Virus record (IMG/VR): IMGVR_UViG_3300034629_000093
Origin: an uncultured virus (IMG/VR IMGVR_UViG_3300034629_000093)
Taxonomy: Duplodnaviria; Heunggongvirae; Uroviricota; Caudoviricetes
Reading direction: 5' to 3' (one strand)
Length of the DNA: 64,000 nucleotides
Every line of letters starts with the position of its first letter. Within the stretch, counting starts at the first letter, position 1. The translations under genes and the position numbers were made by a program. Shown piece after piece: positions 31,292 to 59,032 of the stretch. The notes under the pieces are model-generated. The model worked only from the letters and a program-made list of their open reading frames with translations. It did no database searches and was not told the DNA's origin.

Positions 31292-31831
31292 ATGAACTTA
31301 AAAATCATTAGTGGTACTGATCGACCAAAATCATGGGCGCTTAAGCTCTCTAAGTATATTTCTAATATTTATACTCAAAAAAATATTGATGCAGAAGTTA
31401 TTAGTCTAGAAGACTTTCCATTAGCAGATGTAGTGGGTGGTAAATATGGAAAAGAAATTCCATCTATAAAAAAATTCAGAGACCCTATTTTAAATGCTGA
31501 TGCGCTCATATTCGTAATTCCGGAATACAATGGAGGATTCCCCGGAATCCTCAAAATGTTTATTGATTACCTTCCGTTTCCGGGAGCATTTGAAAAAATG
31601 CCAATGGCATTTATAGGTGAAGCTTCCGGAGCATTCGGAGCCCTGAGATCGGTAGAACAATTTCAAATGATCGCTAATTACAGGAATGCTCTACAGTTCC
31701 CGGAAAGAGTATTTATACCCAGAGTATCAAAAGAATTTGATCCGGAAACAGGATTAAAAGATGAGTTCAAGCAAAAACTTTTAGATTCCCAGGTTGAGAA
31801 TTTTATTAAGTTTGTCCGGGACAACTCTTAG
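31292..31831 (+). CDS. NADPH-dependent FMN reductase
   Basis: ISGTDRPKS, PEYNGGFPGILKMFID, GAFGALR. Confidence 0.92.
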   Translation: MNLKIISGTDRPKSWALKLSKYISNIYTQKNIDAEVISLEDFPLADVVGGKYGKEIPSIKKFRDPILNADALIFVIPEYNGGFPGILKMFIDYLPFPGAFEKMPMAFIGEASGAFGALRSVEQFQMIANYRNALQFPERVFIPRVSKEFDPETGLKDEFKQKLLDSQVENFIKFVRDNS

Positions 31832-32532: not shown

Positions 32533-32587
32533 ATCTTATTAGTTTGAGATTGTAAAATTGGATAATACTACTTTTTTTCGAGTAGTT

Positions 32588-34243
32588 TTAAATTTCTTGG
32601 GTATTAAGTTTTGGAAAAGAGAGCACGAAAGTTGTTCCTATACCATATTCACTTTCTACATGAATATCACCTCCATTCAACAGAACAAGGTTTCTTACAA
32701 TACTCAATCCTAATCCATGACCTTTTGTTTTAGCAACCAGAGTTTCTTCCACTCTGTAAAATTTCTTAAATATGTTTTTCAGTTCGTTTTTTCGGATACC
32801 AACACCATGATCCCGAATAGAGAGTTTGATCTGAGATTCATCTTCAAATAATTTTATAACAATCTTTTTTGTTTCAAAGCTATACTTAATAGCATTTTCA
32901 AAAAGGTTACTTAAGATGGTTTCTATGCTATCTATATCTACTAAAACATTAAAATCAGTTTCCTGCTCTGAGTTGTAATCGAGTTCAAATCCTTTTTCTA
33001 ATATGAACTCCTCATTCTCAGCCAAATAATTGTCGATCAATATCTTAAGATCTTGTTGAGTTTTATTAATGAGAGTTTGACCTGCGTCATATTTAGCTAC
33101 ATCCAGAAGTTTTTCGATCATTTTTCTCAGACGAATAGATTCATCGTAAATATGAGCTCCATATTTTTTGAGACGGGCAGGCTCGGTGACTCTTCCGTCA
33201 GAAATGTTTTCCCCTGCAGCCTGCATAACGGCTAATGGAGTTTTAAGCTCATGGGTAACATTCGCCAGAAAGCCCGCTTGCCTCATTGAAAGCTCTCGTT
33301 CTTTTTGAGCAGTATAAAACATGAACAGTAAAGAGCCTACTAAGAAAAGAACAGCAAAACCTAGAACTATAATGTTCTTTCTAAAAGTATCCTGATAGGC
33401 GGATGTGATTGGTGGATTCAGGAAAGCTACTTTTATGATCCAATCACCAAAGAATCTTGGAAAACGTACTCGGTTATCTACTAGATCTACACTAAAATCT
33501 ACCGAAGAGTTATTGGAAGCCAAGACAATATCTCTGCGATGATCATGTAGCCATACAATGGTTCCATCATTCTCAACGCCACCAAAATATTCATAAATGA
33601 GTGGGGCTATGAGCTTATTTACAATTGCTTCCTGGTCCAGGATAAATGTAAAATACCCAATTACTCTGTTTTCAGTTAAGTTGATCAATCCAATATTCAT
33701 GCTACGATGGGCGTCAAATTCTATCATCGAACGCCATCGCAAATCAAAATTATTGATCTGAATTCGTGTAGCAGAACGTATAAGACCAACTCCATCACAT
33801 ACCAGACTACTATAATCACTGGTTGTTTCCATTTTTTTATCACTTTGATTAAAGTAAAAGATGGAGGTATCGGTTTCACAAGGATCTTTTGAAGCAGGAG
33901 TATAATAAATAGAAGAAGTGTATGGATTATCAGCCAGGTCGATAAAGATCTTTTCTAACGTTTTAGATAATTTGCCATCATCCTGAAGTGATGCTTCCGC
34001 CTGGTTGTCAATATTTAACAGCTTGGTAAATGGTTGATATATTTCGCTCTGAACCAAAGCGGTGATTTCTTCGGCTTTTTTAAGCTGTCGTTCGCTCTCG
34101 CTCTCTGTTACTCTTTCGCGGATATCATAAAGGCTAAAGACATTCATTCCGGTGAGGGCAATAATAGCAACCAGACCTCCCATCAGGAGTATCCAGCGCA
34201 ATAGACGATTGCGACCAATTTTTTTGGCTGTATTAATGTTCAT
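32588..34243 (-). CDS. Membrane sensor histidine kinase
   Basis: Two TMs, HELKTPL, NAIKYS, GHGLGL. Confidence 0.95.
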   Translation of the reverse strand: MNINTAKKIGRNRLLRWILLMGGLVAIIALTGMNVFSLYDIRERVTESESERQLKKAEEITALVQSEIYQPFTKLLNIDNQAEASLQDDGKLSKTLEKIFIDLADNPYTSSIYYTPASKDPCETDTSIFYFNQSDKKMETTSDYSSLVCDGVGLIRSATRIQINNFDLRWRSMIEFDAHRSMNIGLINLTENRVIGYFTFILDQEAIVNKLIAPLIYEYFGGVENDGTIVWLHDHRRDIVLASNNSSVDFSVDLVDNRVRFPRFFGDWIIKVAFLNPPITSAYQDTFRKNIIVLGFAVLFLVGSLLFMFYTAQKERELSMRQAGFLANVTHELKTPLAVMQAAGENISDGRVTEPARLKKYGAHIYDESIRLRKMIEKLLDVAKYDAGQTLINKTQQDLKILIDNYLAENEEFILEKGFELDYNSEQETDFNVLVDIDSIETILSNLFENAIKYSFETKKIVIKLFEDESQIKLSIRDHGVGIRKNELKNIFKKFYRVEETLVAKTKGHGLGLSIVRNLVLLNGGDIHVESEYGIGTTFVLSFPKLNTQEI

Positions 34244-34324
34244 ATATATAAAATAGGAGAATCTTTGATCCCATCCATTTTAATGGTGGTAAAAAAAGAT
34301 GAAGAAAGGAATTGAAGTAAAGTT

Positions 34325-34702
34325 CTAAAGCTTTTCGAAGTTTTTCACTAAAGATTCCTTCAAAACATCAAATTCGATAGGTTTAACCAAATAATCCAGA
34401 TAATTGGTTTCTTTTGCTCGTTCCACGTGATATGGGTCTGAATTACCTGTAATATAAATTACGGGTACATCTGAGAATTTTCTAATCTCGAGCATCGCGT
34501 CAATACCATCCATTTCTCCTTCAAGAGAGATATCCATTAGGATCAAGTCCGGCTTGATACGTTTTGCAATTTCTATAGCAGTTTTTCCGTATACGAGTTC
34601 GCCCTCAGCCCCGTAGCCCAGTTTTTCCAAATAGCTTTCGTAAAGCAGATTTAGGATGAGATCGTCTTCAACGATCATAACCGTTTTCTGTTTTTTGTCC
34701 AT
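34325..34702 (-). CDS. Single-domain response regulator
   Basis: VEDD, LMDISL, YLVKP. Confidence 0.93.
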   Translation of the reverse strand: MDKKQKTVMIVEDDLILNLLYESYLEKLGYGAEGELVYGKTAIEIAKRIKPDLILMDISLEGEMDGIDAMLEIRKFSDVPVIYITGNSDPYHVERAKETNYLDYLVKPIEFDVLKESLVKNFEKL

Positions 34703-34929
34703 ATAATTAGCTCTTCTTAAATCAGCTTATATAATAAGAGGTTTAATGGATAAAGAAAATTCTTATTACCAAAGAATTTTAGATTAAAATAATTTCAAAA
34801 AAGCTTTTTGTTAAGTCTATTTAAGGTTAAAACTAAATAAGTTGCCTCATTTAAGTTATTATAGTATTCTGTTTTGATTTCTAGTAATGTTTTGGGGGGA
34901 GAATTAGGGTGCAGTGATCAAATAAAAGA

Positions 34930-36711
34930 ATGAAGGACATCAAAAACCTGTATAGAAAAAGATCCATCGGCAAGCTAAATGTTGATAAGAAAGTGGTAAG
35001 TATTTTACTGGTATTTATTGTACTGGTGATATCTCTTCTTATTTCTATTGTTGTATCTACTAATTCATTATCAGCATTACGGGGCTTTGCATCTTTCCAA
35101 ACAAACTGGACTACAGCACGGAAAGACGTAACATTCAATTTGGTAAACTACCTTCGTACACAGGATCAAGATTATAAAGCGAAAGTAGATAGTTCTGTTT
35201 TTCTTATTAAAGAAATGGAGCAGATCAGGGTCGAGCTAATGAAAGATAATACTGACAGAGAACTGGTAATAGCTTTGTTAGAAAAAACACATTCAGTACC
35301 TGATGATATAAATAGAATGATTACTACATTCGAAAATTTTCACGAATTCAGTGAATTCAAACATACAGTTGCATTATGGATTGAGTCTGATTCAATGATC
35401 TACGATTTGGAACTAATTTCGATCCAAGCTGAGAATCTAATGCAGGAGAATAGTTTTACCGAGGCTGATCAGGAGGATCTGATTTCGAAAGTTATAGAAT
35501 TGGATGACGAACTAACAGAAATGCAGTTTAAATTATCCAGATCATTGGCGAGGGGAACGGATCTGCTAAATTTGGTAATTATATGCGTGATTATTTCTCT
35601 AGTTGTAATAAGCATTATTGTTGGGAGTATACTTTCATTCAGATTTTTGAGAAGCATTAGAAAATGGAGTGAAGAAATTGAGCTTAGTGAGCAAAAATAC
35701 CGATCTCTGTTCGACCAAAATCCCAATGCAGTTTTTTCTGTATCACCAGTAGGAAAACTAATTAATGCCAACAAAGTACTTGAGCAACTCATAGGCTACT
35801 CTGCCAGAGAAATGAAAAATTCTACTTTTCAAAGATTCGTAGATAAATCTCAAGTAGATAAAGTTCGAAATCATTTTCTGTTGGCTTTAAGAGGGAGATC
35901 ACAGACTTATGAAACACAGATATTAAAAGCAGACGGAAGCTATATAGCCGCTGAAGTCACCAATTTACCTATCATTGTTGATGGTGAGATCACGGGTATT
36001 TATGGTGTAATAAATGATATCACGCACAAAAAAGAAGCGGAACAGAAAATTAAAGATCAGCTGGTAGAAAAAACATATCTATTATCAGAAGTGCATGATC
36101 GGGTAAAAAATAATTTAGCTTTGGTTTCCACCTTAGTTCAGTTGCAACAGAATGAGATTGAGAAAGAGAACAGGGGTGAGAGTTTTGTAAATACTGTATC
36201 CAGGATACGTTCTATGGCATTAGTGCATGAGCGTTTATATCAAAACGAAACGTTCTCCAGCATTAGAATGGATGAATACATAAACGATCTTATAGAGAAT
36301 ATTCAACTCAAAGGATATCAAAAAATTAAAAAACCGAGGCTGGAGCTGGAAACAAGTCCGGTAAGTCTTAGTATTGAACAGGCCATTCCAACGGGATTAC
36401 TTTTAAACGAAGTATTGGTAAATGCTTTTAAGTATGGCTCTGATGCTTTAGATCCGGTGATCAAGGTAAATATGTTTTCTGTTGATGGAGAAGTGACGAT
36501 CAAAGTTGAGGATAATGGTCCGGGGCTTCCCAAAAACTTTGAGCTGGAAAAGCCGGAAACATTGGGCTTCCGATTGGTTTCGGTACTATTGAAACAGTTA
36601 AAAGCCAGTTTTGTCATTAACAATGATAATGGAGCGTCTTTTACGTTCAGATATAAGATCGAAAAGCCGGTGACATCAAAGAGAGCAATGAAGCGACGGC
36701 TTGTGAATTAG
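34930..36711 (+). CDS. PAS-domain HisKA_2 histidine kinase
   Basis: EVHDRVKNNL, LNEVLVNAFKY, DNGPG; PAS (YRSLFDQNP). Confidence 0.92.
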   Translation: MKDIKNLYRKRSIGKLNVDKKVVSILLVFIVLVISLLISIVVSTNSLSALRGFASFQTNWTTARKDVTFNLVNYLRTQDQDYKAKVDSSVFLIKEMEQIRVELMKDNTDRELVIALLEKTHSVPDDINRMITTFENFHEFSEFKHTVALWIESDSMIYDLELISIQAENLMQENSFTEADQEDLISKVIELDDELTEMQFKLSRSLARGTDLLNLVIICVIISLVVISIIVGSILSFRFLRSIRKWSEEIELSEQKYRSLFDQNPNAVFSVSPVGKLINANKVLEQLIGYSAREMKNSTFQRFVDKSQVDKVRNHFLLALRGRSQTYETQILKADGSYIAAEVTNLPIIVDGEITGIYGVINDITHKKEAEQKIKDQLVEKTYLLSEVHDRVKNNLALVSTLVQLQQNEIEKENRGESFVNTVSRIRSMALVHERLYQNETFSSIRMDEYINDLIENIQLKGYQKIKKPRLELETSPVSLSIEQAIPTGLLLNEVLVNAFKYGSDALDPVIKVNMFSVDGEVTIKVEDNGPGLPKNFELEKPETLGFRLVSVLLKQLKASFVINNDNGASFTFRYKIEKPVTSKRAMKRRLVN

Positions 36712-36876
36712 ATTTAGAATGGGACTCACAGACTATCGTTGCTGTTGCTTTTAAGTTGTGAACTTGAAAGAGCTGTGCGTGTAATTATCTTTCGAACAAG
36801 GATGTCTGTATTTATTGATGGAAGCGTTACAATAGGTATAAGAACATTTCCTCATTGGACAGCATATAAGTAAAGA

Positions 36877-37362
36877 ATGAACATGGAAAAAGTAATAACT
36901 GTAATAATTTTAAGCTTTGTATTTTCAATAACCATTAACGCTCAACAACAGTATGTTAAGCTGGTAAACTTGAGTAAGTACAAAAATATTCAAGGAGTAA
37001 TCTTTCAGGGAGAATCTCAAAAGACGTGGTCTAATAAAAAGATGCAAGGTATGTTTTCACCAGAACTAAATGATTTGATAAAAGCAGAGGATATTATCAT
37101 AGATATTTGTTCAGATACTAAGAAAGCACACTATGTATGTTCAAAAATAGGGGAGTTTAAATTCTATAAAAGACAGTATGTAGGCCGTTTAAATAGTTCT
37201 AAAGAAAAGATTTTAGAAATTCAGTTTTTAAATTTTAAAAATAAAAAGGCGAGAGAATTTTTCAATGATTGGGATAAGAACTACATAATAGCATCAGGTG
37301 ATTTATTCTATGATAACTCATTCTTAATTTATATAAATCTAAATACTGGTGAGATTGAGTAA
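36877..37362 (+). CDS. Exported hypothetical protein (AT-rich orphan)
   Basis: Signal peptide; low GC. Confidence 0.65.
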   Translation: MNMEKVITVIILSFVFSITINAQQQYVKLVNLSKYKNIQGVIFQGESQKTWSNKKMQGMFSPELNDLIKAEDIIIDICSDTKKAHYVCSKIGEFKFYKRQYVGRLNSSKEKILEIQFLNFKNKKAREFFNDWDKNYIIASGDLFYDNSFLIYINLNTGEIE

Positions 37363-37765: not shown

Positions 37766-39079
37766 ATGGCCACAATAAGATTTGTTTTACGCCTAACCCG
37801 CAAAAACAGAATGGATCAATCCCCCCTCTTTGTTAGGATCAATTCTAAAAATAAAAAAACAATCAAATACATAGATATTTGGTTAGATCCTAGAAACTGG
37901 AATCCAAAATCAGAGACAGTAAAACCCGTAACCATAACACCACGGACGGCAGACACTCACAACATCACTATCCAAAAAATAAGATCCCGATTCTTAGAGA
38001 TAATAGCTGAACTAAATCAAGCCAATCGGATAGCAGAGATCTCAGGAAAACCAACATTTCCAATCGATCCAATCAAAATAAAAAAAGCCCTCTTTCAAGA
38101 AGAAGAAGAAAATATTAAAATAGATTTTTTCGAATACGTAAAAATCTATTTAGGAAGGTTAGAAGAAAACAAATCCAGATACAACACATTTAAAAAACAC
38201 AGATCCGTAACACGTAAATTCATAAAGTTCATAAAAGAAGAATATCCACACTACAAAGAAAGTTACAAATTCACCGATATATCTATATCAGACATAAAAC
38301 GGTATAAAGGGCATCTCCTAAACAAGATCAAAAACTCACCAAATACAGTAGGAAAAGACATTCAAGAATTAGGGGCAATATTTGATCATGCTATAAAAGA
38401 AGAAATTACGGAACCGTTACAAAATCCCTTCCGTTATATAAATGTAAAAAAAGAACCCGTAAAAAAAGTACCACTCACATACAGCGAGATCGAAAAAATT
38501 GTTGCATTAGACAAATTCGAGAAGCCATTCACAAGAAAAGTAAGAGACTGTTTTTTATTCCAGATCTTTACAGCCGGTTTACGGATAGGGGATTTATGCA
38601 CAATTACAAAAGCGGACATACAAGATAATGGTAGGATCTTCAACTACACAATGAATAAAACCAAAAATACAAACGAGCTGGAGTTAAAGCCCGCTGCGAA
38701 AGCGATACTCAATATCTATTTAGAAAGATCACCAAATGAAAACGTATTCAATTTATTATCCAGGCCCGTATCCGAATACAAAAATGACTTCGATTTAAAA
38801 TCCGAAATAGAATCAGTTACAACCCTTTACAACCAAGAATTAAAAAAAATAGCGAAGTTAGCCGGTATCACTAAAAATGTAACATCACATATCAGTCGCC
38901 ACACCTTTGCACACATGGCACTCAGTAGTGGGTGGGACATTTACACCATAAAAACAGCGCTTCGCCACAGCAATATCAGTATTACCGAAAAATATCTAAG
39001 AGGCTTTAAAGATATGAACGTAGACAGAAAGATGGGCGAGCTCTTCAGTAATCCAAGCCTCATCATCGAAGCGGCCTAA
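37766..39079 (+). CDS. Tyrosine integrase (Arm-binding, SAM-like and catalytic domains)
   Basis: AGLRIGD, KT, HISRHTFA, LRHSNISITEKY. Confidence 0.95.
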   Translation: MATIRFVLRLTRKNRMDQSPLFVRINSKNKKTIKYIDIWLDPRNWNPKSETVKPVTITPRTADTHNITIQKIRSRFLEIIAELNQANRIAEISGKPTFPIDPIKIKKALFQEEEENIKIDFFEYVKIYLGRLEENKSRYNTFKKHRSVTRKFIKFIKEEYPHYKESYKFTDISISDIKRYKGHLLNKIKNSPNTVGKDIQELGAIFDHAIKEEITEPLQNPFRYINVKKEPVKKVPLTYSEIEKIVALDKFEKPFTRKVRDCFLFQIFTAGLRIGDLCTITKADIQDNGRIFNYTMNKTKNTNELELKPAAKAILNIYLERSPNENVFNLLSRPVSEYKNDFDLKSEIESVTTLYNQELKKIAKLAGITKNVTSHISRHTFAHMALSSGWDIYTIKTALRHSNISITEKYLRGFKDMNVDRKMGELFSNPSLIIEAA

Positions 39080-43430: not shown

Positions 43431-43464
43431 TCCCCCTCCTCGGGAGGGGATAAAGGGGAGGGTC
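43431..43464 (+). repeat. REP-like palindrome, copy 1
   Basis: CCCCTCCnnGGAGGGGAYAAAGGGGAGGGT, also at 47898, 56939 and 57970. Confidence 0.85.
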
Positions 43465-47897: not shown

Positions 47898-47998
47898 TTC
47901 CCCTCCACGGGAGGGGACAAAGGGGAGGGTTTTCCTTTCCCCCTTCGGAAGCCTGTGCTGAACTTGATTCAGTAGGGGTGCCCGCAGGGCGGGGGAGG
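47898..47998 (+). repeat. REP-like palindrome copy 2 plus composite palindromes
   Basis: Copy at 47898-47930, then TTCCCCCTTC...TGCTGAACTTGATTCAGTA...GGGGGAGG. Confidence 0.75.
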
Positions 47999-48996: not shown

Positions 48997-50750
48997 GCCA
49001 ACCACTAATCCTATTCATTGACTGCTTCTGTGGAGCAGGAGGAGTATCAGAAGGAGCTGCACGTGCAAGAATAGGTGTAGAGTGTCCGGTTAAAGTGATC
49101 GCTTGTGTAAACCATGATCCATTAGCTATTGAAAGCCATTTACGCAACCACCCAAACACACTACACTTCAATGAAGACATACGATCAGAAAAAGTAATTG
49201 AGCAACTAGCCCGGTTAACCAAATTCTATAAAGAAAAGTATTCGCAGAAATATGAAGTAATAACTGTTCTTTGGGCTTCTATGGAATGTACCAATTATTC
49301 AAAGGCTAAAGGTGGAATGCCAAGAGATGCCGACAGCCGAACGCTTCCAAAAGCTATGTATAAATATATGGAAGCAATTAAGCCGGATTACTTCTACTAC
49401 GAGAACGTAGAGGAGTTTATGGCTTGGGGGCCTATGGATGAAAACGGAAAACCTATTTCCATGAAAAAAGGAAAAGACTACCTGAAATGGATTGATACCA
49501 TAAACGCTATGGGGTATCGACATGATAAAACGATTTTGAACTCTGCAGACTTTGGAGAATACACAAAAAGAAAAAGACTATTCGGGATATTCAGCAGTGG
49601 TAAGTATGGAATTGAATGGCCGTCACCAACTCATGCAGAAAACCCACAAGAAAACGGATTATTTGAAGGGCTAAAGAAATGGAAGCCTGTCCGGGAAGTG
49701 TTGGATTTTGAAGATGAAGGCAAGAGCATATTCACACGTAAAAAGCCATTGGTTGAAGCAACACTCAAAAGGATCTATGCCGGACTGGAAAAGTATGTAG
49801 CAACCGGTGAAGGTGTGTTCATTCAAAAGTATTATTCAGGTCGCCCAAAAGGAAAAGTATATGATGTAAATCAGCCCGGACATACTGTAACAACCGGAGG
49901 CAATCAAGGGATTGTGCGCTGCGCTTTCAATTACAAATACTATGGCAATGGGGCAAACATAGAATCCATTCAGGAACCATCCGGAACACTTACAACTAAA
50001 GATCGATTCGGATTAGTTCAGGGAATGTTTTTAGATAAAGGATTTTCCGGAGTTCATAACCACCAATCTGTGAACACTCCGGCAGGTGCTATACCAACGA
50101 AAGATCATTACTCAGTAGTAAAGTCAACCTTTATGGATAAGCAGTATTCAGGCAAGCTTAACCATGAATCCGTTCACGGTCCAACGGGTAGTTTACTTGC
50201 AAATCCAAAACAACATTTGGTACAAGCTCATTTCGATAGCAAATGGATATTAAAATATAACTCTCGAAGTAAGAACGGAAAACATATTCCTCCATCAGTA
50301 GATGAACCTTGCCCGACTGTAGCCACTCAGAATAGGTTAGGAATGGTATCGGTAAAAGGCGCTCACTTAATGAATCCGCAGTACAGCTCTAAAGGTGGTT
50401 CTGTAAATGATCCGTGCTTCACACTAATTGCCCGGATGGATAAAGCACCTCCATACTTAAACCAGGTTCGCTTTGGTATCGGCACTCCTAAGATCAAGAA
50501 AGGAGATTGTGAAACCATGAGAAAGATCAAGGCTTTCTGTTGGCACTATGGTATTACCGACATCACAACAAGGATGCTACGAGTTCCGGAACTAAAAAGA
50601 ATACAAGGCTTCGGGGATGATTACTACTTAGCAGGCAATCAATCCGATCAAAAGAAATTCATAGGTAATTCAGTAACCCCAAAGATTGTAAAAGCAATGA
50701 TGGAAACTCTATTTACGGAAGTGAATAAGCAATTAAAGGTAGCAGCCTAA
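48993..50750 (+). CDS. C5 DNA cytosine methyltransferase (phage type)
   Basis: DCFCGAGG, WASMECT, YENVEEF, R.R.F, IGNSV. Confidence 0.92.
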   Translation: MSQPLILFIDCFCGAGGVSEGAARARIGVECPVKVIACVNHDPLAIESHLRNHPNTLHFNEDIRSEKVIEQLARLTKFYKEKYSQKYEVITVLWASMECTNYSKAKGGMPRDADSRTLPKAMYKYMEAIKPDYFYYENVEEFMAWGPMDENGKPISMKKGKDYLKWIDTINAMGYRHDKTILNSADFGEYTKRKRLFGIFSSGKYGIEWPSPTHAENPQENGLFEGLKKWKPVREVLDFEDEGKSIFTRKKPLVEATLKRIYAGLEKYVATGEGVFIQKYYSGRPKGKVYDVNQPGHTVTTGGNQGIVRCAFNYKYYGNGANIESIQEPSGTLTTKDRFGLVQGMFLDKGFSGVHNHQSVNTPAGAIPTKDHYSVVKSTFMDKQYSGKLNHESVHGPTGSLLANPKQHLVQAHFDSKWILKYNSRSKNGKHIPPSVDEPCPTVATQNRLGMVSVKGAHLMNPQYSSKGGSVNDPCFTLIARMDKAPPYLNQVRFGIGTPKIKKGDCETMRKIKAFCWHYGITDITTRMLRVPELKRIQGFGDDYYLAGNQSDQKKFIGNSVTPKIVKAMMETLFTEVNKQLKVAA

Positions 50751-50831
50751 CACCCAAACTCCTAACTCCTACATTCTAACTACTAACTACTAACTACTAA
50801 CTACTAAATTCTAACTACTAAAATCTAAAAA

Positions 50832-51308
50832 ATGAGTTCACTAAACAAAGCACAAATCATAGGCCGTCTCGGGCAAGATCCCGAAGTAAGATACACGCAA
50901 TCCAACACCGCCGTAGCCACGCTCAGCGTAGCAACCAGCGAGAAATTCAAAAACAGTGAAGGAGAGCTCCAAGAAAAAACCGAATGGCACCGCGTAACAG
51001 CCTGGGGCAGGTTAGCCGAAATATGTCAACAATATCTAACAAAAGGATCATTAGTATACATTGAAGGCCCCATTCAAACCCGAAGCTGGGAAGACAACGC
51101 AGGCATCAAACGCTACACCACCGAAATCAACGCCAAGCAAATGACCATGCTCGACAGCAAAAAAACCAACGGAGTACCCCATCCGGCCACCACCGAACCC
51201 GATCCCCTTTCCCCCGCAGGGAAGGGAGTTCGAAGGACAGTAGAACCCACAACCCCCAAAATCGACAAAAACTTTCAAGACAACATAGACGACGACCTCC
51301 CATTCTAA
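50832..51308 (+). CDS. ssb: Single-stranded DNA-binding protein
   Basis: [27 protein letters not shown] tail. Confidence 0.96.
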
Positions 51309-51364
51309 CTCCTACATTCTACCTCCTAACTCCTACATTCTAACACCCAAACACCCAATAACAA

Positions 51365-51691
51365 ATGAACACCACCAAATACGCCACCAAAAACTTAAAA
51401 AACAATCTCCAGATAACAGACAAAGATCAGTTAATTGAGCACGTTATCGAAGTATATCAGACAGGAGTAAACATCCAGCAAGCAGAAGGCGATCTCTATA
51501 AGTTCATAGAGCAACAGCAAGAAAAAGCGCTATCCAAAAAACTCATCGATCCGATAGTAAAAACATGGAACAGTCACTGTTATATCTGGCAACACGCCGA
51601 AAACGGACCGGTACTCATAGCGGTAATAAACTTACCACAGAGCTGCATCCCCCAATCCCAAACCCTAACCCCTCTAACTACTAACTACTAA
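51365..51691 (+). CDS. Phage hypothetical protein
   Basis: 108 aa ORF. Confidence 0.6.
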   Translation: MNTTKYATKNLKNNLQITDKDQLIEHVIEVYQTGVNIQQAEGDLYKFIEQQQEKALSKKLIDPIVKTWNSHCYIWQHAENGPVLIAVINLPQSCIPQSQTLTPLTTNY

Positions 51692-51756
51692 ATTCTAAAC
51701 TCCTACATTCTACATTCTCAATCCACAACACCATAACACCCTAACACCAATAAAAA

Positions 51757-52335
51757 ATGCTCTCCAACACCGACTACTTAATAATATACCTAGAAACCCA
51801 AATGGTATTAAACAACGGGTTAATCAATCAGATCCATTTAAGCGAAACCGATCGCAAAGCCATAGAGCTATGGTCAGCCCAAGGAGTAATGCACTGCGAG
51901 CAGATACCGCTCCCCGATCGGCTAGATGCGCCACCCACGTTCACCCATAAAATACGCTTCACAACCGAAATGTGGGATCTAGCAGCGGCAGCCCGAAGAG
52001 AAAAAGCCAACATCAACAATCCGGACGTCAAAGAAAAGCCCCAAAAAGAAATTACAAAAGAAGAAATATTCCCCGAAAAAGACTGGAAAGGATTTCTAAA
52101 AGCGCACGGAGTAAAACTAACGCCCCCACAAGAAATACTCGCAAAAAAGATATTCCAGCTATTCAATCAAAAAGAATATCAATTCTTCTTCATGTCCAGT
52201 GGCGGCGGCAAAAGCTTTCTCTTAAAAACCATCGATCAATACATAACCAGCACCAGTGGAAAACGCGAGAAGTTACTCAAAAAAAAGAAATTCAAAATCC
52301 CCGGATGGTACAAAGAAACCCCAACTAAAAACTAA
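51757..52335 (+). CDS. Hypothetical protein with an isolated Walker-A-like motif
   Basis: LTPPQE...SSGGGKSFL but no rest of a helicase. Confidence 0.55.
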   Translation: MLSNTDYLIIYLETQMVLNNGLINQIHLSETDRKAIELWSAQGVMHCEQIPLPDRLDAPPTFTHKIRFTTEMWDLAAAARREKANINNPDVKEKPQKEITKEEIFPEKDWKGFLKAHGVKLTPPQEILAKKIFQLFNQKEYQFFFMSSGGGKSFLLKTIDQYITSTSGKREKLLKKKKFKIPGWYKETPTKN

Positions 52336-52412
52336 AAAATCAACACTACTAACTCCTACATTCTACCTCCTAACTCCTACATTCTACCTCCTAACTCCTA
52401 CATCCCAACCCC

Positions 52413-52685
52413 ATGAACAAAATCCAGCGCCAAATCCTAGCCTACATCCTTCAAGAGCGATCCATAACCTGGATCGAAGCCAAAGAAATAATAGGTATTC
52501 CGGTACATCATTTTTTAGAAGCCGTCGGGGAGCTCAAATACCAGAGGATAGTAGACACCACCCAAGCCACGGTAGAACTCAAAAAAGGAGAGCCCGGCAT
52601 CATCAACAAATACACCCTAACAGAATCCGGAAAGATCATCGCCCAGCGCAACAGCATCATCCCCGGCTACACCATAACACCCTAA
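52413..52685 (+). CDS. Winged-helix protein
   Basis: L...IV...YTLTESGK. Confidence 0.6.
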   Translation: MNKIQRQILAYILQERSITWIEAKEIIGIPVHHFLEAVGELKYQRIVDTTQATVELKKGEPGIINKYTLTESGKIIAQRNSIIPGYTITP

Positions 52686-52722
52686 CACCATAACACCATA
52701 ACACCATAACACCATAACACTA

Positions 52723-53103
52723 ATGACTAAGGTAGAAGAGTTAAAGGAACAGTTCATAGAAACAAGATGTCAGGACAGTTCGGCTGTCGGCGATCTTGAG
52801 GAGCTTTTGCAAGCAGTACGTGAGGAGGAGAAGGGTATATTCGATTCAATGTTTAAAGACCTGTGGCATATAATCGGGATTGATTTCCTCCCTAAAGAAG
52901 ATAAGCCAGTATTAATATTTAGAGAAAACCACACTCCTAGTGTTATTGGTGCTTTCTATGAAGGCAACCACGAATATGGAGAGTTTCACAATGGTGAGGA
53001 AGATATCGAAAGAAGAATAGTTTATACGGGAATAACAGCGTGGAGTAATGTACTTCCCGAACCTAAACTAGAAACATTAACCCAACCAACTAAGGAGAAG
53101 TGA
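52723..53103 (+). CDS. DUF551-like phage protein
   Basis: W...LP...VL...ITAWS..PEP. Confidence 0.55.
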   Translation: MTKVEELKEQFIETRCQDSSAVGDLEELLQAVREEEKGIFDSMFKDLWHIIGIDFLPKEDKPVLIFRENHTPSVIGAFYEGNHEYGEFHNGEEDIERRIVYTGITAWSNVLPEPKLETLTQPTKEK

Positions 53104-53399
53104 TGGAATCAATAATTGAAGTAGTTGACCATACCAATGATGATATGTACTACCCCATAGCTGTATTTAAAGACTTAGAAACAGCAAAGCACGAAATAGT
53201 AATGCAATTAAGCGAAGATGATTCTTTGTCAGAATTTGCGGTAGAAGAGTATGAAAAAATAGTTTTTAGAGAAAGAAAAATAGGTTGGTCAGGAAACGGA
53301 AAAGAAGTATTCGTTATAGAAAGAGAAGAATATTATGACGAAGAAAAAGATAAATATTTATGGAGACTTTTAACCCCTAAAGCAGAGAGCGATGAGTGA
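53100..53399 (+). CDS. Phage hypothetical protein (acidic)
   Basis: Coupled ORF. Confidence 0.6.
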   Translation: MMESIIEVVDHTNDDMYYPIAVFKDLETAKHEIVMQLSEDDSLSEFAVEEYEKIVFRERKIGWSGNGKEVFVIEREEYYDEEKDKYLWRLLTPKAESDE

Positions 53400-53562
53400 A
53401 GTGAAGAAGCTTAGATTAAAGCTACAAAGCACAGATGAACCTTACATCTTTCGAGACAAAGGCGCTGACATTGATAATTTAGTTATTGCAGTAAATAAAA
53501 TATCTGAAAAGTTAGATGAAGTGATAGATAAGATTAACGAAATCGAGGCATCCAATGAATAA
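53392..53562 (+). CDS. 56-aa coiled-coil protein (absent from the ORF track)
   Basis: MSEVKKLRLK...IEASNE*; fills the gap with overlaps at both ends. Confidence 0.55.
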   Translation: MSEVKKLRLKLQSTDEPYIFRDKGADIDNLVIAVNKISEKLDEVIDKINEIEASNE

Positions 53563-53902
53563 CCTAGCAGAAACAGTTTGGCATGAGAACCCCGTAATTC
53601 TTGGAGCTATTGCAGGGAGTGGGACTTTTGATATTAAAGTAGGGAAAGATAAAGGTAAATTAGATTTAATTGCTCTTGTTGTTCATTTAGAGTATTTAGA
53701 AGATTGCACCCTGATAACCCGAAGCATTGATAGCTTGTCGGATGAGGATCTTCTTGAAGCTGAATCTACATTCAATATCCCAAGTTATAAATCTGTAACA
53801 AAGTGGTTGATGGATAACAAAGAAAGATTAGATGTATTTATTTGGCTTCTTTCAAAAGGAATATGGACAGGCTCTAAAGAAGGCGTGGAGGTAGTGGAGT
53901 GA
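53555..53902 (+). CDS. Phage hypothetical protein
   Basis: Coupled ORF. Confidence 0.6.
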   Translation: MNNLAETVWHENPVILGAIAGSGTFDIKVGKDKGKLDLIALVVHLEYLEDCTLITRSIDSLSDEDLLEAESTFNIPSYKSVTKWLMDNKERLDVFIWLLSKGIWTGSKEGVEVVE

Positions 53903-54075
53903 GAAGAAAGAATTTCAAAACAAAAGCCAAAGATAAAGAGCCTTGTAGCCCTTACTGTATGCACCATGTTTCAAAGCCATGTGATAGGTGTGGAAGGCAT
54001 CAGGCTAAAGGTGAGTGGAATATGCATGAAATAAAATTAGAAGGAATCAGAAACTAACCCCTAACAAGTAGAGAT

Positions 54076-54270
54076 ATGGAAGAAATTTATTATTGGATTG
54101 GATTAATCATTTTTTGGTCAATAGCAACTGGTGGCATTCTTATAATTATTGGTTTTTTGTTTGCCCAAATACTAAATGAAGCAGGAAGGCAATTTAAGGA
54201 GTTTTGGATAATTGTTGATTTTGCAAAGCATAGAAAAGAGTTTAAAAAATGGATGGAGGAAAGAGAATGA
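54076..54270 (+). CDS. Small membrane protein
   Basis: Long hydrophobic N-terminus. Confidence 0.55.
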   Translation: MEEIYYWIGLIIFWSIATGGILIIIGFLFAQILNEAGRQFKEFWIIVDFAKHRKEFKKWMEERE

Positions 54271-54524
54271 AACCAATACAAGTAACAATTCAAAAGCCTG
54301 AAGCCGAAGATTGGGATAAACCATATACATCAAGTCATAAGTTTGATTTGTATCATTGGAATGCTTACATGATTATTGAAGAGGTTTCAAAGAGTAATTT
54401 CAATGCTTCTTTAGTAATGATAGATAGACCTGAAGATGTTGAATTAGGGGATTTCAAAACACTACCCGAAGCCCAAGAAGCCTGCTTCCAACACTACCTT
54501 AAAGAGATAGGAGAAGAGATATGA
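54267..54524 (+). CDS. Phage hypothetical protein
   Basis: MKPIQV start; FKTLPEAQEACFQHY motif. Confidence 0.6.
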   Translation: MKPIQVTIQKPEAEDWDKPYTSSHKFDLYHWNAYMIIEEVSKSNFNASLVMIDRPEDVELGDFKTLPEAQEACFQHYLKEIGEEI

Positions 54525-54604
54525 ACGAATAAAGCTATTTATCCGCTTGTGGTATATAGCGCTTGTTATTTACCGAAGGGAACAGTTTAATTTTAGGATT
54601 TATT

Positions 54605-54802
54605 ATGAGCTTTGACAACACTTTTACAAAGGATGAAATTTACGAAATAGGAAAACACTTGATTGAAACTGGTGAATGGCGGCGCTACGATAATGACGAT
54701 GGACAGTATGCCTTGCTTTGTATAAGATTGCCTTACGAAGCTGATTTATCGAGTAATGGAAGTAGAGTAGATGCGGTTAATGAAAAATTAAATTGTAAAT
54801 AA
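54605..54802 (+). CDS. Cassette 1 hypothetical protein
   Basis: 65 aa; stop codon lies inside the inverse core GTAAATAAC. Confidence 0.65.
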   Translation: MSFDNTFTKDEIYEIGKHLIETGEWRRYDNDDGQYALLCIRLPYEADLSSNGSRVDAVNEKLNCK

Positions 54803-54935
54803 CGGTAAGGCTATGATTTCGGCGTGGTAAAATCCGCAGGATTTTCCGCAGAGAAATCAAGCCAACAAATAGAAAATTAACTTTAAAAAAGACTGACTTA
54901 ACGCTGAATTATAGCCAATGTTAGCAAACGTTATT

Positions 54936-55169
54936 ATGTGTTTATGCACTCAAATAGTAGATGGAATAAATTTAGTTTGCTGTAAATGTAAGTACAGCAG
55001 AAAAGGTAAGCGAGAACTTAACCAAAAAGAAACTTGCCCTAATTGTAGGGGAAAACTAAATGACATAGGCTCTAAAATAGCCATACCAAAAAAACTAGAT
55101 AAAAAAGGCTGGAAAAAATTACAAACATTAATTGACAATATGGAACATTTTGATGTATGCCAATGCTAA
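54936..55169 (+). CDS. Cassette 2 zinc-ribbon protein
   Basis: CCKC...CPNC...G.KIAIPKK.DKKGW. Confidence 0.7.
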   Translation: MCLCTQIVDGINLVCCKCKYSRKGKRELNQKETCPNCRGKLNDIGSKIAIPKKLDKKGWKKLQTLIDNMEHFDVCQC

Positions 55170-55267
55170 TGTTTGCTAACGTAGTAGTATAAAAAACGTG
55201 CAACGCAGTGGAATGTATTTTTATACATTGTTATACACTGTTGTTGCGATTAAATAAAGACAAAATT

Positions 55268-55711
55268 ATGATTACAACAGGAATGATGACAAGTAAAACT
55301 GACCTATGGGCTACACCAAAGGATTTTTTTGAAAAACTATGCGATAGGTTTGATTTTGATACAGACGTTTGTGCTTTGCCTGAAAATGCAAAGGTGCAGA
55401 ATTTTTACACTCCTGAAATGGACGGACTAAAGCAAGATTGGAAAGGTGTTTATTGGATGAATCCGCCTTATGGACGTGAAATTGGTAAATGGGTGCAAAA
55501 AGCCTATGAAGAAGCAAATAAACACGATAGTACAATAGTAGCCTTATTACCTGCAAGAACAGATACAAGATGGTTTCACGATTGGATTTATATGATGTAT
55601 GGTGTAGAGATTGAATTTATTAAAGGGCGGTTAAAATTTGGCGGATCTAAAAATTCTGCACCTTTTCCAAGTATGTTGGTGGTTTTTCAAAAAAATCCTT
55701 TTAAGCAATAA
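55268..55711 (+). CDS. Cassette 3 phage N6-adenine DNA methyltransferase (phage Dam family)
   Basis: DLWATP, DVCA, WMNPPYG, LLPARTDT.WFH, GRLKFG, APFPS. Confidence 0.93.
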   Translation: MITTGMMTSKTDLWATPKDFFEKLCDRFDFDTDVCALPENAKVQNFYTPEMDGLKQDWKGVYWMNPPYGREIGKWVQKAYEEANKHDSTIVALLPARTDTRWFHDWIYMMYGVEIEFIKGRLKFGGSKNSAPFPSMLVVFQKNPFKQ

Positions 55712-55875
55712 TTGTGTATAACATAGTATATGCTCAATACGCATATTCCTAAATATTCAGAATAAAATGAACAAACTAGGAACTAAACACTCAGCACTCA
55801 AAACTAATAACTCGCACCATAACACCCTAACACTTTGCAACTCTGTACTAACTACTATGTACTATCATCTAACTC

Positions 55876-56418
55876 CTACATTCTAACTCCTACCTTCTCA
55901 ACTCCTACATTACTTCCTTCAACCCTAACCAAAACCCTAACCACTTCCTCACGCTCCGTTAAAACCACGCTCAACCCCGAATCCGTAATCCACCGCTTCC
56001 CCGGAGCCTCGCCATAAAACGAACCCGATCCAAGAGCAGAACTAATCGAAGTATTAAGCGATTTAAACAATGCGCTCGTCACAAAATTGGTACGCTCGTC
56101 ATCATCCAGAAGAACAAACGAAGCATCACTTTCATAAAGCTTCGAATCCCTAAACCGCAAAGCAACCAAGCTCTCCCCGGCAAGCTGGGCAAAAACGATA
56201 AGGCTTTCATTATCCGTTTGCTTCAACACATCAAGATCCAAAGCATACACAGCATTCAAAACATCCTTATACGAAGAGCCCCAGGTAATACCCGTCCAAA
56301 CATCCGCTCGTTCAATATCCGCAAAATCCATGTGCGATGCTGCAGATCCAGCATCAACCACAGCCCGCTGCCCGGAACAACCAATCCATAAAATAAAACC
56401 CACCAATAAAAAACGCAT
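55876..56418 (-). CDS. Lipoprotein
   Basis: MRFLLVGFILWIGC lipobox-like start; C-terminus runs into heptamer repeats. Confidence 0.65.
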   Translation of the reverse strand: MRFLLVGFILWIGCSGQRAVVDAGSAASHMDFADIERADVWTGITWGSSYKDVLNAVYALDLDVLKQTDNESLIVFAQLAGESLVALRFRDSKLYESDASFVLLDDDERTNFVTSALFKSLNTSISSALGSGSFYGEAPGKRWITDSGLSVVLTEREEVVRVLVRVEGSNVGVEKVGVRM

Positions 56419-56565
56419 TGCCAAATCTACCCAACCACCCCACAAAATCCAAACCCACAACTAAACACTAAATACTAACTACTAAATTCTAACTACTAAC
56501 TCCTACCTTCTAACTACTAACTCCTAACTCCTACCTTCTAACTACTAACTCCTACATTCTCACAT

Positions 56566-57390
56566 CTACCTCAAAATCTCCCACCCAACAACACCGGCAC
56601 CAACACCGATAAGAAACCACGGAAACCTTTTCCGATTCGGTTGTATCTCCGTAAAAGTTTCGATCCTCAGATTCCTAAAATCCTTCGAAGTCACAATAGT
56701 CCGAACTCCGTTCGTTCGTTCATTCAAAAGCACGGCCACATCAATCGAAGGTTGGCGAAGCTGTGAAATATCCGGAGGATGCAAAGAAAGGTCAGATCCG
56801 TCAAAAGTAACCACCGCGCTACTTTTCAACAGAAAATCACCAAAATAAGCCGCACTCCGCAGGACAGTATCCCTACTAACTTCATTTTTAGGCACTTTAA
56901 AAGTACCATCTTCATTCGCGAAATCAGATGCGATATCCTTCCCCTCCGCGGGAGGGGACAAAGGGGAGGGTCCTCCTGAATTCTGAACTTCTGAATCCTG
57001 AACTCCTATATCCTCACCTTCTACATACTCTTCACTCTGCACTCTGTAACTCTGTAACTCCATAACCTCTTTTAATGATATCGCCTCCCCCCGCAAACTA
57101 TCCACCGCAAGATTCAAGTCCCCCACTATAGAAGAATATCCGGCAATTACTTCATTCTTCTTATCCAGTTCATCCTTAAAACCCAAAGTCACAGATTCCA
57201 AGCTATCAATGATCGCCGATTTACTCCGGATAACATTATCCTTTTCTACTGTCAGGCTATCGATCTGCACCTGCTTCGTATCAGGAGCGTAAATAACAGG
57301 CCTGTCCGTCACCGATCTGGTAACAAAAAAAGTAGTAACTACAAGCAAAGCCGCCACAAAAGCAGCACTCTTAAAATTCAATTCAATCAT
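56566..57390 (-). CDS. Spanin-like membrane-anchored coiled-coil protein
   Basis: N-terminal TM, coiled coil, C-terminal GVGAGVVGW; follows the endolysin. Confidence 0.55.
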   Translation of the reverse strand: MIELNFKSAAFVAALLVVTTFFVTRSVTDRPVIYAPDTKQVQIDSLTVEKDNVIRSKSAIIDSLESVTLGFKDELDKKNEVIAGYSSIVGDLNLAVDSLRGEAISLKEVMELQSYRVQSEEYVEGEDIGVQDSEVQNSGGPSPLSPPAEGKDIASDFANEDGTFKVPKNEVSRDTVLRSAAYFGDFLLKSSAVVTFDGSDLSLHPPDISQLRQPSIDVAVLLNERTNGVRTIVTSKDFRNLRIETFTEIQPNRKRFPWFLIGVGAGVVGWEILR

Positions 57391-57509
57391 AATTCAAATG
57401 GTTTATTCGTTGTTGGTTGTTCTAACTAAAAACTAACTCCTAAATTCTACCTTCTACATTCTAACTCCTAAATTCTACCTTCTACATTCTAACTCCTAAA
57501 TTCTAACTC

Positions 57510-58241
57510 CTAAAATCTATCCCCAACCCAAGAGCTCACCGAATAGATCTGCCGTTTAAAACGCTTCTTACGCATCACTCTATCGCCCTCACGGCCACCC
57601 GCATCATTCGTATTCCCTTCAATAGTCATAACATAACTATCCGAAACATCCTCGATCACGCCCACATGAGCAATCCTATTCTTAGACGAAAACCAAACCC
57701 CAATAACATCCGCTGGTCCGCCAACAAAAGAATCCTGTACACCTCTGGTATAAACCACGGCACTATCCGGGAACCAATCAGGGCTCCAAGCACTTTTAGG
57801 AGCTGCAATCGAATGCTCCGCAAATCCCCAACTCACAAAAGCAGCACACCAGGCATAACCGGCCCCCAAACCCGTAACAGCCAGATACTCCTCAATACGC
57901 TCACCCGTATTATCCAAAGCACCCTCCTTAACCCCGATCTCACCCACAAAAGTCGAAACTACGGCATCCTTCCCCTCCCGAGGAGGGGATAAAGGGGAGG
58001 GTCCCCCTAAACTCCTACCTTCTACCTCCTCAACTCCTGAACTCCGGGCCACCTCTAGCGCAAGCGTCTCGCTTGTGCCCTCACTACTCACTACTAACTT
58101 CTCACTTCTAACTCCTACATTCTCAATACTACCCTCACTCAACTCGTTGGCACGGTAAGCGCCAGAGCCACCATCACAGCTATATGCGAAAAGTAGAAAA
58201 ACAAGGTAAACCAAACTCGTTCCTTTGCTGAAATTGCACAT
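57510..58241 (-). CDS. CHAP-like endolysin with lipoprotein-type N-terminus
   Basis: EIGVKE..NTG, AWCAAFVSW, HVG, TIEGNT. Confidence 0.85.
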   Translation of the reverse strand: MCNFSKGTSLVYLVFLLFAYSCDGGSGAYRANELSEGSIENVGVRSEKLVVSSEGTSETLALEVARSSGVEEVEGRSLGGPSPLSPPREGKDAVVSTFVGEIGVKEGALDNTGERIEEYLAVTGLGAGYAWCAAFVSWGFAEHSIAAPKSAWSPDWFPDSAVVYTRGVQDSFVGGPADVIGVWFSSKNRIAHVGVIEDVSDSYVMTIEGNTNDAGGREGDRVMRKKRFKRQIYSVSSWVGDRF

Positions 58242-58498: not shown

Positions 58499-58576
58499 AA
58501 CTAAATGGTCTATTCGTTATTGGTTCACTAACTCCTAAATTCTAACTCCTAAATTCTAACTCCTACATCCTAAAAC

Positions 58577-59032
58577 CTACTCCGGCACCGCAATTCCATG
58601 CTGCTCCAATAACCGCAAAAACAAGTCATTTCTATTCTCCAGAGCCTTGTTATCATCCTCCAGTTGACGAACCTGTTCCAGAAGTTCCTCCGATTCGCTC
58701 TTATGTCGCTCCTCGATACGTAGCATCTCCTTCTTATACCGCTCCTCAAGCTCCTTCTTCTCCGATTTATGCCGATCAATAACCTTGATCAACTCCGTCT
58801 TAATTCGGTCAAGTTCCTTCTGTACATTACCACGTTCACTCTCCAGTCGGGCCATCATCTCCGATGCTTGTTTAAATACTTTATCCTGTAAATTCGCCTC
58901 CGCCGTAGTATGTTCCGCGATGTCCTTACTGTTTTGTCTAAAAAAATTAAACAACCAAACCAAGCCACCACCCAGCGCTGTCCCTATCGCAATCAACAAA
59001 CTCACCCAAGCCACTAAATTCTCATTCATCAT
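58577..59032 (-). CDS. TM plus coiled-coil protein (lysis region)
   Basis: N-terminal TM followed by a long charged coiled coil. Confidence 0.65.
   Translation of the reverse strand: MMNENLVAWVSLLIAIGTALGGGLVWLFNFFRQNSKDIAEHTTAEANLQDKVFKQASEMMARLESERGNVQKELDRIKTELIKVIDRHKSEKKELEERYKKEMLRIEERHKSESEELLEQVRQLEDDNKALENRNDLFLRLLEQHGIAVPE

Follow-up and report, generated by a model that had tools for sequence, protein, structure and literature searches.

The last three genes of a phage early operon in the uncultured Caudoviricetes record IMGVR_UViG_3300034629_000093 (IMG/VR), at positions 54527 to 55722 of the 64,000-nucleotide (nt) stretch analyzed here (the window), probably form a three-unit array of mobile single-gene cassettes that is integron-like but of mirror-image polarity. 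The array lies at the far end of the 15-gene early operon of a temperate phage, the second of two prophages carried by the window, which are separated by host genes (31292 to 37362). Over 5.5 kb, these genes share 99% identity with genome G001 (Balneola sp.), and the host species of the prophage is evidently Balneola, conspecific with G001. On the sense strand, each cassette would consist of a spacer hairpin, a left box of GTTA plus private bases, a gene, and a right box in which the complementary private bases precede TAAC. Circularization of such a unit would bring its two ends and the hairpin together into one folded site on the plan of an integron attC site, with a stem closed by AAC and GTT, an asymmetric internal loop, a second stem, and a variable loop. 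A tyrosine recombinase acting in trans would cut the folded sense strand at AA|C, units would be exchanged through a circular intermediate, and the cassette genes would be expressed by readthrough from the phage early promoter. With its genes on the strand that has the "bottom strand" role, such an array would be the mirror image of a classical integron. The parts of the array and its borders are as follows.

54249 to 54524, plus strand: backbone gene of 91 amino acids (aa), whose stop codon TGA (54522 to 54524) overlaps GAAC (54523 to 54526), the fixed left border
54527 to 54564, plus strand: spacer S0, before unit 1, with hairpin GCTAT (54534 to 54538)/ATAGC (54556 to 54560)
54565 to 54803, plus strand: unit 1, with arms GTTATTTAC (54565 to 54573) and GTAAATAAC (54795 to 54803) and a 65-aa gene (54605 to 54802)
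54804 to 54919, plus strand: spacer S1 (116 nt), before unit 2, with a long imperfect hairpin (54809 to 54825/54901 to 54916) and an inner hairpin
54920 to 55180, plus strand: unit 2, with arms GTTAGCAAAC (54920 to 54929) and GTTTGCTAAC (55171 to 55180) and an 83-aa gene
55181 to 55229, plus strand: spacer S2 (49 nt), before the dam unit, with GTAGTA unpaired, a stem (55187 to 55195/55218 to 55226), and ATT unpaired
55222 to 55730, plus strand: unit 3, with arms at 55222 to 55247 and 55705 to 55730 and core GTTATACAC (55230 to 55238)/GTGTATAAC (55714 to 55722)
55723 to 55780, plus strand: terminal element S3, with hairpin ATATGC (55728 to 55733)/GCATAT (55741 to 55746), an A/T-rich leader, and ATGAACAAACTAGG

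Closed units and their natural junctions

Exact inverted repeats of at least 9 nt with halves 50 to 800 nt apart occur 228 times in the window, and a 9-nt inverted repeat is by itself unremarkable; what is exceptional is the placement of those in the array. Exact pairs of at least 9 nt that begin with GTTA and end with TAAC number 9 in the window, compared to 0 to 7 in 30 Markov shuffles. When the upstream region of each gene in the operon was paired, without gaps, with the stop region of every gene, units 1, 2, and 3 reached scores of 11.8, 16.9, and 18.6 with their own ends, compared to 3.0 to 8.4 for the other 12 genes and a mean of 7.1 for the 210 wrong pairings (99th percentile, 12.0; maximum, 14.3). 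The score of unit 1 falls just under the 99th percentile because its stem carries a bulge and the score is ungapped. Only 3 of the 15 genes are closed by their own inverted repeat, and the own-end complementarity of these units (9, 10, and 9 nt) compares to 3, 4, and 4 nt with the neighboring box.

In unit 1, the full arms (9 plus 13 nt around an 8-nt bulge) include the mini-hairpin CCGAAGG (54573 to 54579) and the inner arm ACAGTTTAATTTT (54582 to 54594) on the left and AAAATTAAATTGT followed by AAATAAC on the right (54784 to 54803), with the stop codon TAA (54800 to 54802) inside the right repeat; the protein has a weak likeness to gp40 of Polaribacter phage P12002L. The arms of unit 2 extend to 14 nt at 93% (GTTAGCAAACGTTA, 54920 to 54933; TAATGTTTGCTAAC, 55167 to 55180). 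Its gene, which starts at 54918 or 54936 and ends at 55169 with a TAA (55167 to 55169) 1 nt before the core repeat, encodes a protein with CxxC...CxxC motifs for which no family match, and no relative among viral contigs, was found. Arms of 26 nt at 81% close unit 3, whose gene encodes a Dam methyltransferase (55268 to 55711, 147 aa; PF05869 at 1.4e-30; phrog_111) and ends with a TAA (55709 to 55711) 2 nt before the repeat. The spacer hairpins are set off by 5 to 7 unpaired nt after AAC and 3 to 4 nt before GTT (7 and 4 nt in S0).

All three units carry the AAC and GTT that are invariant in the attC box consensus RYYYAAC...GTTRRRY as given by Larouche and Roy (2011), but only 2 or 3 of 4 degenerate positions fit in the boxes AAATAAC, TGCTAAC, and GTATAAC. 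Sites of the circular forms would be about 52, 130, and 63 bp long, compared to an attC criterion of 57 to 141 bp, and they contain stems as well as unpaired spacers of unequal length. No two-base T-N6-G pattern was found in the phage sites; S2, judged by eye, has extra bases on the sense-strand 3′ arm. A search of 51000 to 57000 against Rfam gave no match, just one sub-threshold chance match.

In natural variants, entire units have been added, removed, exchanged for others, or duplicated, and the junctions fall at ...TAA|C. In L164, L165, and L168, which are the same prophage (flanks 99.7% and about 95.8% identical to the window), unit 1 is joined straight to S3 and window positions 54805 to 55723 are missing; S0 accompanies unit 1, S1 is missing along with units 2 and 3, and identity is 99.7% up to the AAC, after which S3 stands where the window has S1. 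In L160, a complete phage genome, the 91-aa backbone protein is identical and ...ATATGAACG leads into a different unit. This one unrelated unit, closed by a 22-nt stem, fills the whole interval from the identical upstream gene end (...ATATGAAC) to the same S3. In provirus G007, a perfect 320-nt duplication runs from AAC to AAC, upstream spacer included. A contig of run X14 diverges from the window behind 54527.

S3 is the fixed right border of the array and is followed by no GTT box. Across 8 sequences it stands behind five different ...AAC-ended cassettes, all of which adjoin it at one and the same nucleotide, and its homology to L160, L166, and L167 stops at about 55780. In one complete phage genome it occurs twice, on opposite strands; a search of genome contigs for its terminal hairpin gave no match.

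Some stems also enclose whole genes in the would-be variable loop (L160 3542 to 3612; L170, which is P12002L, 32494 to 32694, minus strand). A 74-aa gene lies inside the 22-nt stem of L160, gp41 of P12002L is enclosed by GTGTAT...ATACAC, and L160 also contains a gene-less mini-unit, GTTGTATG...CATACAAC. Cassettes can thus be nested or empty.

Polarity and the folding strand

The hairpin of a spacer evidently travels with the gene downstream of it and not with the gene upstream. S2 is homologous to the hairpin before the dam gene of L003, where the loop is conserved, the stems are changed, and the upstream genes differ, in a phage that otherwise shares with the window phage only its integrase (28%), single-stranded DNA-binding protein (SSB; 47%), and Dam (64%). 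In L003, the boxes GTTATCGGCA/TGCCGATAAC close the dam gene (64% aa identity) at positions equivalent to those in the window dam, which amounts to a compensatory change relative to GTTATACAC/GTGTATAAC. A scan of viral contigs with a loop motif returned at least 119 matches, mostly chance, and among the 80 loci fetched from it, only L003's own had AAC and GTTA around the motif. Retention of the hairpin before dam, the joining of unit 1 to S3 instead of S1, and the G007 duplication together place the junctions at TAA|C. On these comparisons, a unit appears to comprise spacer hairpin, left box, gene, and right box, which is the mirror image of the classical integron arrangement. The unpaired stretches, long after AAC and short before GTT, are also the reverse of those on the top strand of attC sites in the G001 chromosomal integron (3 nt and 7 nt). 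With this reversed asymmetry, the phage sense strand has the geometry of an attC bottom strand, the strand on which integron integrases are reported to make their AA|C cut (Nivina et al. 2016).

A preliminary description of the stretch, made from its letters alone, had placed the six repeat halves exactly where they lie and the stop codons in, or at most 2 nt from, the end repeats. The inter-unit hairpins it listed exist, in a notation that omitted the unpaired spacers on either side, and the last of them, which it called a truncated fourth (55728 to 55746), proved to be part of the conserved element found beside five different upstream cassettes. The comparison of related phages that it suggested showed whole units differing between fixed borders, with those borders at ...AAC| and not at G|TT. 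The polarity it gave has to be inverted, since the hairpin appears to belong to the downstream gene.

Mismatches within stems provide a signal of which strand folds. Across 41 non-overlapping stems from six phage regions, G.T mismatches on the sense strand outnumber A.C mismatches 26 to 1, compared to a ratio of 1.07 predicted from composition (p = 5e-7), and the sense strand folds better in all 3 circular-form sites. Host attC stems, taken as the wobble calibration, contain zero mismatches and so offer no comparison; of 25, 18 are more stable as the bottom strand.

Covariation was seen in unit 1-type cassettes. A scan with the unit 1 leader found 7 viral loci, which after removal of two duplicates gave 6 loci including the window's own unit. 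These six carry six different end boxes, each self-complementary over 8 to 9 nt, compared to at most 7 nt (mean, 4.8) for wrong box pairings. Their cargo differs by locus (genes of 58 to 83 aa, with one unit gene-less), and a common tail dictates the last residues (...LNC-x). The inner stem extends with covarying bases, and the closing pair of the bulge N-CGAAG-N′ covaries as GCGAAGC, ACGAAGT, and CCGAAGG. Mini-hairpins of the GCGAAGC type are reported to be extraordinarily stable as DNA and far less so as RNA (PMC13037366). Taken together, the strand and covariation evidence leans towards single-stranded DNA over RNA.

The dam coding sequence itself contains two perfect nested inverted repeats, of 20 nt (55318 to 55337/55682 to 55701) and 18 nt (55390 to 55407/55648 to 55665). 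No other exact inverted repeat in the window exceeds 15 nt. The two are absent from the dam of Clostridium phage phiCT19406C, and exact repeats of at least 10 nt are lacking in 26 of 34 dam relatives; the L003 dam has its own nested 11-nt pairs. We infer that these repeats act as zippers that join the ends of a long cassette in single-stranded form; an RNA role or phase-variable inversion may be alternatives. Inversion of dam between the perfect repeats would truncate the protein, since the in-register reverse frame has a stop upstream of the 85-aa open reading frame. No strand-changing joint was present among the joints listed for contigs aligned to the window.

Host integron, candidate recombinases, and related phages

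G001 encodes a 331-aa IntI that scores 432.5 bits on TIGR02249 (cutoff, 265, which none of 14 control genomes passed) and that adjoins at least 25 attC sites in a sedentary chromosomal integron (L175/L176, G001:845000 to 884999). The IntI locus is identical to L183, a locus from a metagenome-assembled genome of Balneola sp., and relatives of this IntI with 58 to 100% identity occur in many Balneolaceae records (Balneola and Gracilimonas). Own-end complementarity in the G001 cassettes is 8 to 12 nt (median, 11) in 24 of 24, compared to 4 to 8 nt (median, 5) with the neighboring box, and genuine cassettes deviate from the box consensus in the same manner as the phage units (GTATAAC and GCTAAC).

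The host integron and the phage array thus have GTTA.../...TAAC cores, the own-end rule (8 to 12 nt in the host and 9 to 10 nt in the phage), and a stem, internal loop, and stem in common. They also differ. The attC sites of the host form one homogeneous sequence family, in length classes of about 95, 111, 117, and 133 nt, that has no match in the phage spacers; in the host, genes occupy the attC top strand and are followed by their attC, whereas the folded phage site precedes its gene; the loop asymmetry is reversed; and an integrase is adjacent in the host integron and absent in the window. No cargo common to the array and 40 kb of the host integron was found by tblastn or blastn. Identical 10-nt end boxes, GTTATAGGGC/GCCCTATAAC, do occur in the third unit of L003 (4861 to 5079) and in one G001 cassette (L175, about 14103 to 14698); blast found no similarity beyond the boxes, and the match may be a coincidence within a small box repertoire.

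No integron integrase is encoded in the window, where the sole tyrosine recombinase (PF00589; 37766 to 39079) scores 49.3 bits against the TIGR02249 cutoff of 265. The genes flanking the array match no recombinase family, and no single-strand annealing protein or HUH enzyme was found in the prophage by PHROGs or Pfam. A second kind of candidate came from provirus G007, where the array ends 41 nt before the gene for a 271-aa Xer-like tyrosine recombinase that falls below the cutoffs of both the IntI and the Xer models (TIGR02249, 108 versus 265 bits; XerA type, 150 versus 220 bits). The G007 array resembles the window in its cassette types, with a P12002L gp40-type unit bearing the same leader, AAC-to-AAC units, and a TA-TATAT-like motif after the last AAC; it differs in adjoining such a recombinase gene. 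In 3 of 4 viral relatives, ...AAC is followed, by eye, by a TA-TATAT-like motif within 60 nt before the recombinase gene, and this motif resembles the start of S3. Self-complementary pairs of at least 9 nt at the four Xer-like loci number 2, 2, 0, and 4 upstream and 2, 0, 1, and 0 downstream of the gene; the association between array and recombinase rests on these 4 loci. Tyrosine recombinase genes are missing altogether from two complete array-bearing phages (the L160 genome and P12002L). The enzyme does not have to be IntI; the IntI of the host species and a G007-type Xer-like recombinase are both possible candidates in trans.

Phage clusters of attC sites lacking integron integrases (CALINs) are already known. 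One survey (Qi et al. 2023, PMC9892861) reports 17 of them, including P12002L with two methyltransferase cassettes, and recombination of 5 of 6 predicted phage attC sites by IntI1. Like the array-bearing prophage of the window, P12002L is a marine Bacteroidota phage with an integrase-less row of single genes that includes DNA methyltransferases and has AAC...GTT hairpin sites. Its P12002L_attC1 follows the plan of S2 (a TGCTAAC box, 6 unpaired nt, a stem, ATT, and GTTA), its gp40 unit is homologous to unit 1, with the same leader and tail, and stems formed by a unit's own ends, as in the window, are found at gp35, gp54 (8 plus 18 nt), gp53, gp55, gp56, and gp57. A 65-nt terminal element occurs twice in P12002L, and the array architecture is larger than published; the survey reports only two sites, of "divergent directions" (PMC9892861). 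Its accessible text contains no mention of own-end closing stems, a link between hairpin and downstream gene, or natural gain and loss at AAC (PMC9892861). A TAA|C crossover initially read from its attC2 result was dropped, since the oligonucleotide table does not show it, and that result is treated as neutral. No paper describing mirror-image polarity, own-end closing stems, or a phage Xer-like partner was apparent in literature search listings; Supplementary File 1 of Qi et al. may bear on orientation. Junctions left by gain, loss, and duplication in nature, together with the covariation and the signal from the folding strand, make the array a well-supported addition to this known kind.

A different single-gene system is reportedly found in T4-type phages, where PeSL promoter-terminator cassettes are said to mediate modular shuffling, with short conserved stem-loops that bound single genes in hyperplastic regions and mark the ends of insertions, deletions, and replacements. 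PeSLs reportedly share promoter and terminator sequences and act through homologous recombination, and are not known to have private self-complementary ends or a fixed AAC/GTT core.

Relatives of two of the cassettes, in an unrelated provirus and in P12002L, support a phage-borne pool as the likely source of the cargo, in line with the phage-type pool proposed in the preliminary description. That account was also correct in finding no integron integrase in the window, in likening the single-gene units to integron cassettes (own-start/own-end complementarity is as in real cassettes of the host species), and in the rule that the inverse core matches the start of the same cassette and not the next, which holds in 24 of 24 G001 cassettes and in the phage units. 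The search for a host intI that it proposed found one in conspecific G001, next to its attC sites, so an IntI in trans is available in the species, with the Xer-like recombinase at the end of the G007 array as the alternative; its spacers, taken as attC, did not match the covariance model of the host's own sites. As a whole it is partly supported: its account of mobile integron-style cassettes that lack an integrase and come from a phage-borne pool is right, and its polarity and border are wrong.

Readings weighed, setting, and significance

Several observations weigh against a mobile, mirror-image array. A covariance model built from 24 host attC sites gave at best 5.7 bits (E of about 1, filters off) in the array and found no site in the 9 phage loci related to it. 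Among published sites, the nearest analogue of S2, P12002L_attC1, is the one of six for which IntI1 recombinants were not verified (PMC9892861). As isolated single-stranded DNA, the S0 and S2 hairpins are weak (−3.5 and −6.1 kcal/mol). Neither kind of candidate recombinase, IntI or Xer-like (the latter sought by tblastn), is encoded in the window, and the IntI evidence comes from conspecific G001 and not from the window's own strain. No circular or excised form was seen in data that consisted of contigs, and no unit-border joint was present among the 15 of 38 joints listed. The L164 deletion, taken alone, could arise by slippage between 5-nt direct repeats (ATAAC). Finally, closing stems of 14 to 26 nt, together with the 20- and 18-nt repeats of dam, exceed what any integrase box needs, and long stems with a sense-strand G.T bias would equally fit an RNA structure.

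Such an RNA role is the basis of an alternative that we consider unlikely: that the 5′ and 3′ stems close each cistron for processing (RNase III-like), stability, or translational insulation, with units exchanged by ordinary phage mosaicism and selection keeping whole modules. The 26-to-1 wobble bias, the length of the closing stems, and the nested perfect dam helices would all suit it, as would right arms that overlap stop codons, predicted RNA folds that use the stems (z-score of −3.8 for S1-unit 2-S2), and the shuffling of genes just upstream in the operon at conserved junctions that have no such sites. Whole-unit RNA z-scores are, however, modest (−1.2 for unit 1 and −2.0 for the dam unit), and the conserved bulge is of a mini-hairpin type reported to be much stabler as DNA than as RNA (PMC13037366). 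An RNA role also leaves unexplained why the junctions of independent events fall on one nucleotide at AAC, why the conserved GTTA/TAAC cores are identical to the host integron core, and why a recombinase gene stands at the array end in G007.

Quite unlikely, in our judgment, is an ordinary CALIN of classical polarity, in which the hairpin is the attC of the upstream gene and host IntI acts in trans with a G|TT crossover on the sense strand. The presence of an IntI in the host species and of end boxes and own-end complementarity like those of its integron would fit such a cluster, and the published survey reports that HattCI called the analogous P12002L site an attC and that IntI1 recombined five further phage sites at G|TT (PMC9892861). 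Yet a crossover at AAC is required to explain the change from S1 to S3 behind a unit 1 that is 99.7% identical up to AAC, conservation links the hairpin before dam to dam and not to the upstream gene, and the G007 duplication from AAC to AAC takes in the upstream spacer. The loop asymmetry is reversed relative to the host attC top strand, and the host attC model has no match in the array. Chance repeats and ordinary intergenic hairpins with no common function are very improbable: 9-nt repeats are frequent in this A+T-rich window, and unit 1 scores just below the 99th percentile of wrong pairings, but 3 of 3 adjacent genes are closed versus 0 of 12 others, 0 of 30 shuffles reach the GTTA/TAAC count, L003, L160, L166, G007, and P12002L repeat the architecture with sequences of their own, and the unit 1-type boxes covary sixfold.

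The mirror-image cassette array could also be part of something broader. We regard it as possible, and put it forward tentatively, that marine Bacteroidota phages possess their own integron-like gene-capture system, either a separate invention or an old offshoot, that works through a three-way single-stranded DNA junction on the sense strand, a TAA|C crossover, a Xer-like enzyme, and dam zippers. The phages sharing it would include the Balneola prophage, Polaribacter phage P12002L, and several uncultured viruses. The junction would be built from the two ends of a cassette and the hairpin in front of it, with one cassette type adding a DNA mini-hairpin. The short Xer-like recombinase of some phages would serve recombinase-less arrays in trans, possibly along with host IntI, and in long cassettes such as dam, perfect internal helices would have arisen as zippers for the two ends.

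The prophage that carries the array opens with a Bacteroidota-type tyrosine integrase (37766 to 39079), followed by a repressor, a DnaD-like loader, a DnaB helicase, a C5 methyltransferase, SSB, and then small early genes; its lysis and tail genes lie on the opposite strand beyond 55876. This prophage is not present in G001, and the array region was found neither in G001, the nearest genome, nor in virus record G002. The other prophage of the window (about 1 to 31000) is Mu-like and transposable, with an rve transposase (26269 to 28017), a MuB-like ATPase (29689 to 30657), GemA, Mu F, and a portal; its right end (31000 to 31202) is 100% identical to G001 at a different chromosomal place.

In the 1.7 kb upstream of the array (52720 to 54456), small early genes are mosaic among the window, L164, and L160, with conserved islands of about 28 to 84 nt only, at gene junctions, and without cassette-type sites. 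A very deep X14 contig (about 5400- to 5600-fold) skips single early genes there (for example, 53903 to 54053). This mosaicism is classical junction-sequence shuffling beside the cassette system.

Three families of short repeats were also observed. G-poor 21-nt tandem repeats (CTAACTCCTACATTCTACCTC and variants) occupy many of the intergenic regions that flank the array on either side within the second prophage (51284 to 51364, 51660 to 51741, 52328 to 52415, 55827 to 55914, and 56454 to 56499, and by blast about 50747 to 50829, 57425 to 57512, and 58528 to 58579), occur in the related prophage L164 as well, and may be iterons or regulator sites. About 8 tandem copies of an 8-nt unit (CACCATAA; 52651 to 52722) lie directly before the gene at 52723, and a similar stretch in G001 matches at 83% identity. 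A G-rich 21-nt element (GGGAGGGGACAAAGGGGAGGG) is present in 4 copies at 3 or fewer mismatches, compared to 0 expected (43442 to 43462, 47909 to 47929, 56950 to 56970, and 57981 to 58001); two copies lie within reverse-strand genes (56566 to 57390 and 57510 to 58241) and encode a common peptide, GGPSPLSPP(A/R)EGKD. The element has the look of a small repeat that was inserted in frame.

Phage genomes are mosaic, yet a defined site-specific route by which unrelated phages swap single accessory genes has barely been documented. In the natural variants described here, such exchange is directly visible: between its two fixed borders, the same prophage has one cassette, three cassettes, or another one altogether, and otherwise unrelated phages contain homologous cassettes. 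The mirror-image polarity, the folding of the sense strand, and a possible recombinase other than IntI lead to testable predictions about integron-like chemistry outside bacterial integrons, and a host species with its own integron integrase makes the in trans hypothesis directly testable. Because the cargo includes an orphan Dam methyltransferase, a typical antirestriction gene, the system may let phages reequip fast against host defenses.

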